From NCBI GenBank assembly GCA_963849325.1, contig CAWKHF010000006.1:128001-192000 (forward strand): a DNA stretch of 64,000 nt, written 5' to 3'. Below are positions 44,761 to 49,457 of this stretch, piece after piece. A program made the position numbers and the translations under genes. Position 1 is the first letter of the stretch, and every line of letters begins with the position of its first letter. This stretch comes from an uncultured Planctomycetota bacterium. Its GTDB lineage: Bacteria > Planctomycetota > Planctomycetia > Gemmatales > Gemmataceae. The notes beneath the pieces are model-generated. The model was not told where the DNA came from and searched no databases. It saw only the letters and a list, made by a program, of their open reading frames with translations.

Positions 44761-45063
44761 TCATTGTTCACTTTGGTAAAGTTCCGCTTCCTCTTTCTGG
44801 AGGTCGGCACTTTGCTCGGGGGTGGGCAGGGCTTTGGCGGCGGCCTCCATCGCGGCCTCCTTGGTCGAAGCCCTCCCGGCCGGTCCCTCGCTGTCGGTGG
44901 GTTCCCGGCTCACCACGGGGTAGTTCGTCAGATACCATACCCAGGGCGCGGGGCCGTTCGGGTCATCACACTCGACCACGGCCGTAATACCCGTGGCTTC
45001 GTCCGTGGCCTCCTGGTGCTGGGCCATCCGCATTTCCAGCGAAGGTTTCCATTGCAGACGCAT
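44761..45063 (-). CDS. Hypothetical protein
   Basis: AAGGAGA RBS before MRLQWKPSLE. Confidence 0.5.
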   Translation of the reverse strand: MRLQWKPSLEMRMAQHQEATDEATGITAVVECDDPNGPAPWVWYLTNYPVVSREPTDSEGPAGRASTKEAAMEAAAKALPTPEQSADLQKEEAELYQSEQ

Positions 45064-45174
45064 GGCAGTCTCTCCTTGGGTTAGACGAATCTGTTCCCCT
45101 CTTGCTCTTGCCCTTCTTCTGACGGAAGGCACGACATTTGCATCCCGGCGGATTACACCTCCGATGGTCCTCCC

Positions 45175-45351
45175 TTACCCCCAAAACGACCGCCTTCTGT
45201 ACCCATGTCCCAGGAAAGAAAGCGCCGCGAGAATGAGGAAGACGACGAAGAGGATTTTCGCCCCCTCCCAGGAGAAATTGGCCACCCCCCCGTAGCCGAG
45301 GAAGGCAGCGACCAGGGCGATGACGAGAAACACGATGGCCAGGCGTAACAT
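45175..45351 (-). CDS. DUF1328 small membrane protein
   Basis: MLRLAIVFLVIALVAAFLGYGGVA...AKILFVVFLIL; AAGGAGG RBS. Confidence 0.9.
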   Translation of the reverse strand: MLRLAIVFLVIALVAAFLGYGGVANFSWEGAKILFVVFLILAALSFLGHGYRRRSFWG

Positions 45352-45483
45352 GGTCAGATCCTCCTTCAAAAAGGTTGGGCTTCGTTGGCGAAGTGCCAGA
45401 CGTGCCCGCGATTGCCACTTCCGGATGGAACATACTCAAAACGTCCTCGCGCCATCCGTGCCGCTCCTCCTCGCGCCGGCCTG

Positions 45484-45675
45484 TCACTGGGTCTCGCCGG
45501 CGTGGAGGCGCACCCACACTTCCAGGCGATGGACGGCAACGTCGGCGGCGGCCTCGAAGCCCAGTCTCACTTTCCCGGCTTTAATGTCCAGCACCGTGAC
45601 TTTGAGGAGAGGGGCGAGGCCGTCGGTCCCTCCGACGACAACCACCTCCTGGCTCTTTCGGGTCAAAACCAACAT
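45484..45675 (-). CDS. csrA: Carbon storage regulator CsrA-family protein
   Basis: MLVLTRK, VTVLDI...VRLGFEA...VHRLEV. Confidence 0.88.
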   Translation of the reverse strand: MLVLTRKSQEVVVVGGTDGLAPLLKVTVLDIKAGKVRLGFEAAADVAVHRLEVWVRLHAGETQ

Positions 45676-46121
45676 GGCAGAACCTCCGTTTTCCTGATGG
45701 ACACACCCTCGATGAGCGCTTGGGAACGCACCAAGCGGCGTTCGCGCAGCAGCAGGATTTCCAGGCGCGCGAGGTCGATCGGCTTGATCAGGTAATGGTC
45801 AAAGCCCGCCTCGTCGCAGAGCCGACGGTGGACCTGGTCCGTCCAGCCGGTGATGGCGATCAGCAGAGTATCCGCGAAGGTCGCCTGCTGCCGCAGCTGT
45901 CGCGCCACCTGGCAGCCGTCCCTCTTCGGCATGGTAAGGTCCAGCAGCACGACATGAGGTTTACGAACAACCGTCATGTCGAGGGCGGCCGCGCCATCGT
46001 AGGCCGTCCGCGCCTCGTGCCCCCACAGGTTCACCAGCACGGACAAGCTGTCCGCGGCGTCTCGATTGTCATCGACGACCAGCACGTGGAGTGTCCGCTG
46101 GCTGTCCGCAAGGCGCGGCAT
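45663..46121 (-). CDS. Single-domain response regulator (REC)
   Basis: VLVVDDN, LLDLTMP..DG, AITG, GFDHYLIKP; start may be 46226. Confidence 0.88.
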   Translation of the reverse strand: MPRLADSQRTLHVLVVDDNRDAADSLSVLVNLWGHEARTAYDGAAALDMTVVRKPHVVLLDLTMPKRDGCQVARQLRQQATFADTLLIAITGWTDQVHRRLCDEAGFDHYLIKPIDLARLEILLLRERRLVRSQALIEGVSIRKTEVLPCWF

Positions 46122-46238
46122 CGAGTCGCCGCTCCGCCGCGCCGGCAAGACATCACCGGGCGGTAGCAACGACGCGCGGACGGCAGGACCGTCCACCCCA
46201 ACGGCTTCCAAACCGAGGCTCAACATGCTAGGACCTCC

Positions 46239-46685
46239 TTATCGACCTTGCGTAGCGGGTCCGCTGCCGCTCCAGGTATCCGCGGGTACGCTGTGGGAGA
46301 GCAGGAACACCTGGACCACCGTGCCGCTGGTGAATACTTTCACCACCGTGCCGCTGGCCGTCTCCACTTCCGCGGCCGCCTCGCGCACCTCCACTCCCGT
46401 GATTCGTTTGATGTCCTGGCGCAGCGAATCCGAGGAGTTGGCGAACAGCTGCCGGTGGAATTCCTGCACCTGCGCGACGCCTTCCGAGCTCATGGCCAGG
46501 GTCTTCTCGGCCGGCGACAGAGCGCCTTGCAGCGTGATCACCAGCGTGTTGTCACTGAGGACCACAGTCACCGATTTGGGTGCGCGGCCTGTAGTCCGGC
46601 ACTCGAAATCGATCGCCGCCTGGGCGATCTGCTGGGCCGCCGAGACGGCCTGACCATCGGATTCAGCCCTGGTCGTAGGGACCAT
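46239..46685 (-). CDS. DUF2294/MpsC-family protein
   Basis: TGRAPKSVTVVLSDNTLVITLQGALSPAEKTLA...ITGVEV. Confidence 0.85.
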   Translation of the reverse strand: MVPTTRAESDGQAVSAAQQIAQAAIDFECRTTGRAPKSVTVVLSDNTLVITLQGALSPAEKTLAMSSEGVAQVQEFHRQLFANSSDSLRQDIKRITGVEVREAAAEVETASGTVVKVFTSGTVVQVFLLSHSVPADTWSGSGPATQGR

Positions 46686-46722
46686 TGCGTCTCTCCCGCT
46701 AAGTCCGCCCCGGTCGGCCGAT

Positions 46723-46774
46723 AAAAAAAGCCGACGCGGTGGATCTCCCGGAAGGGAACCCACCGCGTCGGCTT
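46723..46774 (-). terminator. Intrinsic terminator in the leader of the DUF2294-REC-csrA operon
   Basis: Minus strand AAGCCGACGCGGTGG...CCACCGCGTCGGCTT followed by a T7 run, 38 nt upstream of the ATG. Confidence 0.85.
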
Positions 46775-46868
46775 ACTCGTAAACGGACCCTCTGGCTCGG
46801 CCAGATTGCCCTTTAGCTAGTCATCCAACGCATTCACCTATTCGGATTGGAATAGGTTCGGTATGTTC

Positions 46869-46896
46869 ATTGTAAGACTCGGAGTGGAGAAAGCAA
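46869..46896 (-). promoter_or_regulatory. Candidate sigma70 promoter
   Basis: Minus strand TTGCTT-N16-TACAAT. Confidence 0.5.
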
Positions 46897-46990
46897 GGGG
46901 GGCTTTCCGGTTCCGGACATGCCCTTTCCCAGTATCCTATCTTTCACGGGGCAGACCTTTCACGGGGATGGACCCGCCTTCGAGGTGATC

Positions 46991-47371
46991 ATGAAATCGC
47001 AGGGAGAGATCGAAGCCGCCATCGGCGAAGGGATCAGCCGCTTCGAGCAGGAATACATGGGTCGCGGCCCCAAGCACGTTCACGCCTACCTACTCGGCGA
47101 CCTCCTCGTGGTCCGCCTCCTGGGCGTTTTGACCGTGGCCGAACAGCAGCTGGTCAAGTCGCTTCCGGCCGAGAAGGGCCGCGACCTGCTCAAGCAAGTG
47201 CGCACCCATCTGGTCGAGACGGCGCGTCCGGTCATGGAGGAAATGGTCCAGGAGATCACCGGCATCAAGGTGGTGAGCCTGCACCACGACATCAGCACCC
47301 TCACCGGCGAGGAGGTCATGCTCTTCACGCTGGCCGAGTCGCCTCTGTTCCGTGAGGCAAGGAAAAAGTAG
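46991..47371 (+). CDS. DUF2294/MpsC-family protein
   Basis: MKSQGEIEAAI...EYMGRGPK...GVLTVAEQQL...SLHHDISTLTGEE; GAGGTG RBS. Confidence 0.9.
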   Translation: MKSQGEIEAAIGEGISRFEQEYMGRGPKHVHAYLLGDLLVVRLLGVLTVAEQQLVKSLPAEKGRDLLKQVRTHLVETARPVMEEMVQEITGIKVVSLHHDISTLTGEEVMLFTLAESPLFREARKK

Positions 47372-47473: not shown

Positions 47474-47794
47474 ATGATCCTGTCGGACTTTCTCACGCAC
47501 CATGCGGACGGCGAGATTACGTTGACCGGCCATCGCATCGGTCTGTACACCGTGGTGCGTCTGTACCGCGAGGGGCAGTCCGCCGAGCAGATCGCCGAGG
47601 AACTGGAGTCGCTGGGGTTGGCCCTGGTGTACAAAACGCTGGCCTTCTACCTGGAGAATCAGGCGGAAGTGGATGTTTACGTGGACGCTTATCGGGCAGA
47701 ACTGGACCGGCAGGCGCAGCTTCATCGAAAAGGCCCTGGCATTGAGGAATTGCGGCGACGTTGGCAAGAAAAGGGGTTGGGGACGCCGCCGTGA
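47474..47794 (+). CDS. DUF433 antitoxin-like protein, copy 1
   Basis: GHRIGLYTVV...GQSAEQIAEE..SL.LALVYKTLAFY. Confidence 0.85.
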   Translation: MILSDFLTHHADGEITLTGHRIGLYTVVRLYREGQSAEQIAEELESLGLALVYKTLAFYLENQAEVDVYVDAYRAELDRQAQLHRKGPGIEELRRRWQEKGLGTPP

Positions 47795-48165
47795 TGCCTG
47801 TCCTTCGCTACGTCCTGGATGAGAACTTACGCGGCATTCTCTGGCAGGCCATCCAACAACACAACGGTCTCGGCGCCTTCCCCCTCGATGCTGTCCGTGT
47901 CGGCGATCCGCCGGACCTGCCTCTGGGGACGGTGGATCCGAACATTCTTCTGTGGGCCGAATGGGAGGGACGAATCTTCGTGTCTCTGGACAAAACGACA
48001 TTGCCGGGCCACCTGGCCCAGCATCTCCAGCAGGGCCGTCATTCGCCGGGGATTCTCATCGTGACGCCATCCAGCACGCTCGCGGAAGTCCTTGAATATC
48101 TCGTGTACGCCGCCTATGCCGGCAAGCCCATCGATTACGCGGACGGCATCACGTTCATCCCCTGA
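47794..48165 (+). CDS. DUF5615 PIN-like toxin, copy 1
   Basis: YVLDENL, GTVDPNILLWAEWEGRIFVSLD, HSPGI. Confidence 0.85.
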   Translation: MPVLRYVLDENLRGILWQAIQQHNGLGAFPLDAVRVGDPPDLPLGTVDPNILLWAEWEGRIFVSLDKTTLPGHLAQHLQQGRHSPGILIVTPSSTLAEVLEYLVYAAYAGKPIDYADGITFIP

Positions 48166-48195
48166 ACTTCGCCACGGCCCGCAACGGAGGACGCC

Positions 48196-48600
48196 ATGAT
48201 CCTGCCGGACTTTCTCACGCGCCACGCGGACAATGACATTCGCCTGACCGGCCATCGCATCGGCTTGTACACCGTGGTGCGCCTGTACCGCGAAGGGCAG
48301 TCCGCCGAGCAGATCGCCGAGGAGCTGCCGTCGCTGGGGTTGGCCCTGGTGTACAAAACGCTGGCCTTCTACCTGGAGAATCAGGCGGAAGTGGATGTCT
48401 ACATGGATACGTATCGCGCCGAACTGGATCGGCAGGAGGCGCTGTACGACAATAGTCCGGTAGCGCTCAAGATGCGGCGTCTCCGGGAATTGCTCCAGCA
48501 AGCCGATGAACGGTTCGGTTCCGAGCCGGGCTGGGCGACCGTTCCAATCCCGGAGAAGATTCGACGAATGGAGGAAGCAACCTCTCCTCCGGCGGTGTAA
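48196..48600 (+). CDS. DUF433 antitoxin-like protein, copy 2
   Basis: Near-identical N-terminus to copies 1 and 3. Confidence 0.85.
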   Translation: MILPDFLTRHADNDIRLTGHRIGLYTVVRLYREGQSAEQIAEELPSLGLALVYKTLAFYLENQAEVDVYMDTYRAELDRQEALYDNSPVALKMRRLRELLQQADERFGSEPGWATVPIPEKIRRMEEATSPPAV

Positions 48601-48602
48601 CG

Positions 48603-48977
48603 ATGCCCTTACGCTTCGTGCTGGATGAACATCTGCGCGGCGGTGGCCTGTGGCGGATTATCCAGCAACACAACGCGCAGGGGCTGAACCTTCTCGATGC
48701 CGTCCGCGTGGGCGACCCGCTCGATCTCCCTCTGGGAACAACGGATCCGGATGTGTTGATCTGGGCGGAGCGCGAAGGCCGAATCCTCCTGTCGCGCGAT
48801 TTCAGCAGCTTGCCGGGACACCTCGTCCAGCATCTTCGGACGGGACGCCATGCGCCGGGGATCTTTCTCCTTCGCCCGCGTGCCTCGTTGTCTGCCGTGC
48901 TAGGAGACCTTGTCGTGACGGCTCACGCCGGCGATGCGGCTGACTTTCAGGACGCCATCCGCGTCATCCCGTTCTAA
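48603..48977 (+). CDS. DUF5615 PIN-like toxin, copy 2
   Basis: FVLDEHL, GTTDPDVLIWAEREGRILLSRD, HAPGI. Confidence 0.85.
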   Translation: MPLRFVLDEHLRGGGLWRIIQQHNAQGLNLLDAVRVGDPLDLPLGTTDPDVLIWAEREGRILLSRDFSSLPGHLVQHLRTGRHAPGIFLLRPRASLSAVLGDLVVTAHAGDAADFQDAIRVIPF

Positions 48978-49052
48978 TCGACCCCGGCGGTCCAGGATGG
49001 GATGCTCCGGCGATGGCGGGTACAATGAGGAGCCATTTTCGAGGAGCCTACG

Positions 49053-49457
49053 ATGGTCCTGCCGGACTTTCTCACGCGCCACGCGGACAATGACATTCGC
49101 CTGACCGGCCATCGCATCGGCTTGTACACCGTGGTGCGTCTGTACCGCGAAGGGCAGTCCGCCGAGCAGATCGCCGAGGAGCTGCCGTCGCTGGGACTGG
49201 CCCTAGTGTACAAAACGCTGGCTTTCTACCTGGAGAATCAGGCGGAAGTGGATGTTTATATGGACGCCTATCGCGCCGAGTTGGACCGGCAGGAGGCGGC
49301 TTATGTGCCGGGACCGGGGGCGCTCAAACTCCGGCGTCTCCTGGAGCTAGTCCGTGAAGCGGACTCGCGGTATGGCTCTGACCCGGCCTGGTCGGCCCTC
49401 GACATCATTGAGAAATTGCACCGACTTGGGGAGATCCCTCCCACGAATCCGGTGTGA
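49053..49457 (+). CDS. DUF433 antitoxin-like protein, copy 3 (no PIN partner)
   Basis: Near-identical N-terminus to copy 2. Confidence 0.85.
   Translation: MVLPDFLTRHADNDIRLTGHRIGLYTVVRLYREGQSAEQIAEELPSLGLALVYKTLAFYLENQAEVDVYMDAYRAELDRQEAAYVPGPGALKLRRLLELVREADSRYGSDPAWSALDIIEKLHRLGEIPPTNPV

Follow-up and report, generated by a model that had tools for sequence, protein, structure and literature searches.

A conserved leader RNA between divergent DUF2294 (MpsC) genes of Planctomycetota, a probable transcription attenuator

Introduction

In Bacillus subtilis, the terminator in the leader of the hut operon is controlled by HutP, a small dedicated protein that is encoded beside this terminator, binds the RNA just upstream and prevents the terminator. 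HutP is a hexamer, and it binds UAG repeats together with L-histidine and Mg2+. Another arrangement is found with the BglG/LicT/SacY proteins. Their RNA target, the RAT, is an imperfect hairpin with conserved internal loops, the 3' strand of which is shared with the 5' arm of the terminator, and stabilisation of this hairpin leads to read-through. These proteins contain CAT and PRD domains, and their activity is under the control of the sugar phosphotransferase system. General stress can be handled at a different level, at the initiation of transcription, as in the PhyR-NepR-EcfG system of Alphaproteobacteria, which works through an alternative sigma factor. To our knowledge, no general stress response has been described in Planctomycetota, and we know of no function that has been assigned to DUF2294.

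The locus considered here lies in a stretch of 64,000 nt from an uncultured bacterium of the planctomycete family Gemmataceae (contig CAWKHF010000006.1, positions 128,001 to 192,000), which is called the window below. A leader RNA is encoded there between two divergent DUF2294 (MpsC) genes, one directly behind the leader (type B) and one pointing away from it (type A). The leader belongs to an RNA family that is widely conserved but uncatalogued and that stands before stress genes in Planctomycetota.

The role that is proposed below for the type A protein would resemble that of HutP, and in relatives whose genomes do not have the RNA motif, the type A gene sits directly before a hairpin and terminator, as hutP does. 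The differences are that the leader RNA is without regular triplet repeats, that the type A model is not significantly similar to any solved chain, and that the type A gene is divergent and would serve many leaders. As in the RAT systems, the 3' strand of the long hairpin of the leader, called the rod, would overlap the 5' arm of the terminator, but at approximately 80 nt the rod is much longer than a RAT, and the proteins of this locus match PF10057 only. In protein-dependent antitermination of the HutP, BglG/LicT or PyrR type, the regulator gene is linked to the leader; the type A gene is linked in the same way, and this likeness is one of linkage only. The order of promoter, structured domain, overlapping terminator and varied genes is also that of the guanidine-I (ykkC) and Na+ (DUF1646) riboswitches; unlike these, the leader RNA has no Rfam match and is linked to a conserved protein gene. 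With CsrB and RsmX/Y/Z it shares multiple copies, strong terminators, csrA nearby and the presence of GGA, whereas it has one conserved GGA and is systematically followed by same-strand genes. Finally, the genes behind the leaders are similar to those of the PhyR-NepR-EcfG regulon (CsbD, BON, DUF892, Dps/ferritin, Hsp20, DUF1328, DUF3309 and DUF4142). The leader promoters, in contrast, look housekeeping-like, and the conserved element appears to be an RNA attenuator.

The leader in the window

The spacer between the two divergent PF10057 genes is 305 nt long, and the leader is read on the minus strand. Its promoter (46869..46896) is composed of TTGCTT (46896-46891), a 16-nt spacer and TACAAT (46874-46869). 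Between the start region and the conserved motif lies a 5' hairpin, P0 (46836..46857), in which ACCTATTC (46857-46850) faces GAATAGGT (46843-46836); as RNA, these arms read ACCUAUUC and GAAUAGGU. The conserved RNA motif itself comprises 113 positions (46723..46836) and consists of a 5' strand, the rod hairpin, the terminator and a U-tract. The antiterminator 5' strand, GCGUUGG (46825..46831; family consensus GUCGUCGG), is complementary to CCGACGC (46765-46771), and the sequence thus agrees with the pairing that had been proposed for these two segments. The rod hairpin (46775..46821) is closed by P1 (ACU/AGU) and contains conserved A-G-rich internal loops and covarying stems. Its inner hairpin, UCUGGC/GCCAGA (46791-46805, with arms at 46805-46800 and 46796-46791), is followed by GAGTAAG. 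The intrinsic terminator (46723..46774) is formed by a 21-bp hairpin (46728-46774), which carries CCGACGC in its 5' arm, and by U7 (46723-46729); the hairpin alone folds at -40.2 kcal/mol, and U7 ends 37 nt before the ATG of the following gene. All of the elements listed in a sequence-only reading of the window (promoter, hairpins, GCGTTGG, GAGTAAG, terminator and T7) were found in place on the minus strand. That reading had counted 38 nt from T7 to the ATG, a figure that needs correction by one nucleotide. The elements exceed chance. For the 185-nt leader, the computed folding energy is -86 kcal/mol (z = -5.6, equalled by none of 200 shuffles), and the region matches a covariance model of the family, R1, which was built from 27 copies, with 110.6 bits (E 1e-28).

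The first gene behind the leader is the type B DUF2294/MpsC gene (46239..46685, minus strand, 148 aa), with its ATG at 46685 and a Shine-Dalgarno sequence, GGGAGAG, at 46691-46697. It is followed on the same strand, with overlaps or short gaps, by genes with Pfam matches to a receiver-only response regulator (45663-46226), CsrA (45484-45675) and DUF1328 (45175-45369). These three genes probably complete the operon that the leader would control. At the end of this putative operon, there is an ORF of 123 aa (44761-45132, minus strand) for which neither Pfam nor NCBIfam gave a match. The type A DUF2294/MpsC gene (46991..47371, plus strand, 126 aa), the candidate regulator, is divergent from the leader. 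In the stretch that separates the leader promoter from the start of type A, the sequence CTTTCACGGGG occurs twice on the plus strand, 16 nt apart, at approximately 46941-46975. This repeat could be an operator or a part of the 5' UTR, and its conservation was not obvious in the 19 other loci compared.

A conserved RNA family

The sequence-only reading could not assign the leader to a known RNA family. This agrees with a covariance search of the whole window against Rfam 15, which gave no match at the gathering score, including for the Na+ DUF1646, Li+ nhaA-I, ykkC and CsrB/Rsm families. When the search was extended to E values up to 10, mir-8303 (26 bits against a required 90), ar7 (25 against 60), CrfA and others appeared; they were rejected because only the terminator hairpin was aligned and the scores were far under the gathering scores. 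In a BLAST comparison of the spacer with relatives, conservation was confined to 46836-46721, and the copies were multiple and clustered.

With model R1, three copies were found in the genome to which the window belongs. Among 151 genomes sampled from the order, the leader RNA is present in 28, all of them within the family of the window; by family, it occurs in 27 of the 135 sampled genomes of the window's family and in none of 15 from the sister family. The richest genome of this sample has approximately 17 forward copies. Across the rest of the phylum, 5 of 150 sampled genomes carry the RNA. The loci that are related through the type A protein are labelled as Gemmataceae, Pirellulales, Thermoguttaceae, Planctomycetaceae, Phycisphaerae and Isosphaeraceae MAGs, and a few bins bear other labels. 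In the literature that was searched, which lay largely outside subscription journals, there was no description of the leader RNA or of a role of DUF2294 in antitermination. Given its strong covariation and its absence from Rfam 15, the RNA could join the catalogue as a new family.

The promoter belongs to the conserved arrangement. Of 142 distinct copies, 122 have the pattern TTGNNN-N15-19-TANNNT in the 110 nt that precede them, as against 19 of 142 shuffled controls, and its commonest forms across the copies (TTGCTT, TACAAT and a spacer of 16 nt) are those of the window. From the end of the -10 element to the motif, the median distance is 46 nt, and it is 32 nt in the window. The leader promoter was not called by a simple sigma-70 scanner that was run on the window, because TTGCTT matches only three of six positions. 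The position of P0 is occupied in most copies by a hairpin of variable, unrelated sequence (94 scored; median z -1.85, window z -4.4). The earlier placement of the promoter 5' of the first hairpin is borne out by this recurrence, and with the pattern conserved upstream, the real promoter therefore does not lie downstream of the hairpin. Many type A genes also have a conserved extended -10 element of their own and a partly conserved 5' UTR of approximately 90 nt. In five loci (L097, L101, L115, L151 and L161, at approximately 1400-1420), the extended -10 element of type A, TTTGGTATCAT, stands back to back with the leader promoter.

Two competing folds

The homologous leaders that were collected are conserved, and both the rod and the terminator covary strongly. 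In the alignment of 57 distinct copies, the terminator form reaches 95.4% paired cells, with double changes at 28 of 35 pairs. None of 500 shuffles reached this level of covariation, and the paired fraction dropped to 31-47% in slid controls. The upper stem of the terminator covaries at all of its 15 pairs, whereas the lower stem, AAGCCGRCG, hardly varies, and two of its C positions are kept in all 121 distinct copies. For the rod, pairing reaches 95.7% over these 121 copies, with one pair present as GC in 55, AU in 50 and GU in 15, and with compensatory changes at 8 of 11 inner pairs. Next to the invariant P1 (ACU/AGU), the rod shows a series of conserved A.G oppositions.

The antiterminator helix behaves differently from these stems. 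Over the 121 copies, 93.5% of its cells are pairable, but there are only two double changes, and the changes in the antiterminator strand (consensus CGUCGG, in the window GCGUUGG) are almost all one-sided. A hint that is independent of changes in the helix comes from G15.A80. These two positions are opposed only in the extended form of the rod, and they are swapped to A.G in three copies from at least two lineages, which supports a juxtaposition of the two strands. For the idea of a terminator/antiterminator leader, this means that the terminator is conserved and covarying, while the alternative pairing is conserved too and agrees with the copies, but compensatory changes do not prove it.

Energy calculations are in line with such a switch. 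The best fold of the nascent window RNA, at -42.3 kcal/mol, contains P0, the rod and a 7-bp antiterminator helix, and the antiterminator core is present in the best nascent fold of 116 of the 121 copies. In the full RNA of the window, the terminator is preferred by 8.5 kcal/mol (family median 8.9 kcal/mol). From the nascent antiterminator fold and the preference for the terminator in the complete RNA, we therefore infer termination by default and read-through only when the base of the rod is clamped.

Two further possibilities were considered for the 5' part of the motif and rejected. A pairing of the 5' CGUC with GACG of the 3' rod strand is broken by copies that have AAAG there. A leader peptide starting from AUGACUAG would comprise only 3-5 codons without a fitting Shine-Dalgarno spacing, and the U of its AUG is kept in 88 of 121 copies and is hence not conserved.

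The DUF2294 proteins and their linkage to the RNA

The flanking genes had been named as divergent DUF2294 (MpsC) genes, and both of their products match PF10057/MpsC, which is their only Pfam match. With 121.1 bits (E 3e-35) for type A and 80.6 bits (E 1e-22) for type B, they pass the gathering score of 23 bits; NCBIfam models gave no match to either. PF10057 splits here into two subfamilies with approximately 24% mutual identity, of which type A scores about 120-130 bits and type B 60-85 bits. Relatives of type A fall into 1,566 representative clusters at E values up to 0.001.

Eighty loci from across Planctomycetota were fetched by similarity to the type A protein alone (74-84% identity). 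Of these nearest relatives of one protein, which are hence a dependent sample, 71 of the 80 have the leader RNA divergent to type A; its 5' end is then 97-456 nt away from the start of the type A gene (median 212 nt). In the other nine, the adjacent RNA is missing. The type B gene stands just behind the motif in 44 of 91 copies from the type A loci and in 13 of the 57 copies of the first set, and it is the most frequent type of gene downstream of the leader RNA. With the divergent RNA in so many type A loci and type B behind 44 of 91 copies, the window thus represents the canonical module.

In the sample of the order, in which the genomes are related and the counts dependent, PF10057 is found in 25 of 28 motif-positive and 44 of 123 motif-negative genomes. 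A comparison of coordinates shows, for 18 of the 25 genomes, that the listed type A match is divergent from a motif copy and at most 600 nt away from it. The three motif-positive genomes in which PF10057 was not found are 91-95% complete and carry the weakest motif scores. These three genomes, the 44 motif-negative genomes that keep type A and the nine type A loci without the adjacent RNA count against type A as the factor that opens the leader. In the genome of the window, there is a second type A gene (G000:C5:11115-11450, minus strand; L085 4080-4457). It overlaps the preceding gene for a hybrid histidine kinase/receiver protein. A further copy of the leader RNA (C5:8815-8928) is found 2.2 kb downstream of this type A gene, in the same orientation.

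Where the motif is missing from the genome, a covarying hairpin of another kind, together with a terminator, lies behind 10 of 13 type A genes on their own strand (loci L072-L084, e.g., L079:1282-1409, minus strand), 80-200 nt past the type A stop codon. The base of this terminator, GGCCGGA..., is similar to that of the motif. Genes for the Sbt_1 bicarbonate transporter or for beta-carbonic anhydrase lie behind 8 of these 10 leaders. This looks like a sister class of leader with an inorganic-carbon theme, distinct from the RNA of the window.

The predicted model of type A has a pLDDT of 94.9 and the order helix, two strands, two helices, two strands. On its long helix, K68 and R71 do not vary among type A proteins, and R64, K68 and R71 of type A correspond to A, Q and H in type B. 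Such basic helix residues would fit RNA binding by type A and not by type B. Searches of the PDB by sequence and by profile gave nothing significant for type A (best E 0.04, to a SIR2-like protein). The best Foldseek matches of the model were weak (E 0.02, to YslB, H-NOX and Bet3), and the VIA fold search gave Z values of 6.6 or less; in these searches, there was no clear relative and no likeness to a known antiterminator. The weak matches that recur (YslB, H-NOX, V4R, Bet3/TRAPP, RbfA and phage neck proteins) are all below a meaningful level, and they may point to a ligand-sensor fold as much as to RNA binding.

Genes behind the leaders

The first set comprises 57 copies, one of which is located at the end of a contig and two of which were left unscanned because of duplicate ORFs. 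Behind 31 of the 57, an ORF on the same strand that has a Pfam match is found within 250 nt. The matches are to MpsC (13), CsrA (3), desaturase (2), ice-binding-like proteins (2), DUF3309 (2) and PAS (2), with single matches to Hsp20, ferritin, DUF4142, a holin-like family, M48, FKBP and a sigma-54 activator. In the second set, there are also matches to DUF892 (2), CsbD, BON, an MscS-like channel, a sigma-70 family protein, KaiC, PilZ, DUF5670 and kinases. A test of reading frames by GC3 on 106 scorable copies gave 89 downstream frames on the same strand versus 17 on the opposite one, and Shine-Dalgarno sites lie 10-100 nt past the U-tract.

CsbD, BON, DUF892, Dps, Hsp20, CsrA and desaturase belong to the general-stress gene set of other bacteria. 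A shared metabolite or ion theme was sought among the downstream genes of both sets, and a mixed general-stress set was found instead. The sequence-only reading had thought of a leader that senses inorganic carbon or ions; the genes behind the RNA do not support this, being of general-stress and not of inorganic-carbon types. It had also stated that DUF2294 genes accompany MpsAB uptake systems. This is not supported by a published study, in which mpsC is reported to lie apart from mpsAB in bacteria other than staphylococci and to give no phenotype when deleted (PMC6689103).

Control of the leader

The leader is very probably a cis-acting transcription attenuator. In the mechanism that is proposed, a strong sigma-70-like promoter would drive an operon of type B DUF2294, the response regulator, CsrA and probably DUF1328. 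The nascent RNA would fold the 5' hairpin and then a long rod that is based on the GCGUUGG/CCGACGC helix. Once the 3' arm of the terminator has been made, the more stable terminator would capture CCGACGC and transcription would stop at U7, so that the default state would be off. For read-through, a factor would be needed to clamp the base of the rod. On the strength of its genomic linkage, the type A DUF2294 protein is the most likely candidate for this factor, with about an even chance, and its recognition site would be the purine-rich internal loops that are conserved in the rod. The reading as a whole, of a default-off attenuator that is opened by type A DUF2294, seems to us evenly balanced between right and wrong. 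With many leaders per genome, type A would control a general-stress regulon. Type B, which is without the conserved basic face of the type A long helix and would itself be induced, may feed back on type A.

The sequence-only reading had left two options, a riboswitch or a site for the divergent DUF2294 protein, and the second has the stronger genomic support, through the 71 of 80 type A loci. A true riboswitch is an unlikely explanation, although much of the architecture would suit one that turns genes on: a conserved structured domain, an overlapping terminator and a strong, constitutive-looking promoter, in multiple copies before varied genes. The rod, with its highly conserved purine-rich internal loops, would then serve as an aptamer. 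Direct binding of a small molecule or ion linked to stress would stabilise the antiterminator without a protein, and the DUF2294 genes would be no more than favoured cargo. A ligand, however, leaves the conserved, leaderless, divergent type A gene unexplained in those same 71 loci. The regulon is broad and stress-related, without a common metabolite or transporter theme, the fold is a simple rod in which no junction or pseudoknot was detected, and there is no match to a riboswitch of Rfam.

It is decidedly improbable that another protein runs the leader, such as CsrA acting on the conserved GGA of the 5' strand or an RNA chaperone of the cold-shock type. The 5' strand contains UCGGAUGA, which we take to resemble a CsrA site and whose A13 is present in 106 of 121 copies, but each RNA holds a single conserved GGA, and binding to the 5' strand would favour termination and not read-through. 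Genes for CsrA lie behind 3 of 57 copies, and one is within the window operon; this linkage is far less consistent than that of type A. The desaturase and ice-binding-like cargo would suggest cold, but no link to a csp gene was seen.

There is little chance that the main product is a trans-acting sRNA of approximately 150 nt, running from the promoter to U7 and present in multiple copies like Qrr or RsmX/Y/Z, with the downstream genes incidental. The strong same-strand bias of these genes, their Shine-Dalgarno sites 10-100 nt past the U-tract and the position of type B directly behind 44 of 91 copies do not agree with incidental neighbours, and no second promoter is evident in the 37 nt between the terminator and the ATG in the window. 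What an sRNA would explain is the own promoter and strong terminator, the multiple and clustered copies and the nearby csrA. Least probable of all, and by our estimate scarcely credible, is an RNA that itself senses temperature or ionic strength by a shift in its fold balance without ligand or protein, for although two folds compete and the cargo includes stress, cold and osmotic genes (desaturase, ice-binding-like, Hsp20, BON and MscS-like), a terminator advantage of approximately 9 kcal/mol is large for a passive switch, loops and a lower stem of such strict sequence conservation suggest that a partner recognises them, and the type A linkage would be unexplained.

The pairing of DUF2294 with the leader RNA suggests a concrete and testable function for this family, and the RNA marks a candidate stress regulon directly in planctomycete sequence. 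A wider proposal is offered tentatively, with somewhat less than even confidence: DUF2294/MpsC may be a new class of signal-responsive, RNA-binding antiterminator, in which type A would clamp the rod of at least 10 leaders per genome and so govern a stress regulon in Planctomycetota, the sister leader would gate the bicarbonate transporter and carbonic anhydrase genes, and type B would feed back. If this is true, the widespread DUF2294 domain would gain its first molecular function, and attenuation, in place of an alternative sigma factor, would run a stress response.

Other genes near the locus

Beyond the type A gene on the plus strand, the window contains three tandem paralogues of 106-134 aa (47474-49457), which begin at 47474, 48196 and 49053, and the first of which matches DUF433. 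Behind each of the first two lies a partner ORF of 124-134 aa (47761-48165 and 48603-48977). The arrangement looks like a two-gene cassette repeated in tandem, possibly of the toxin-antitoxin type.
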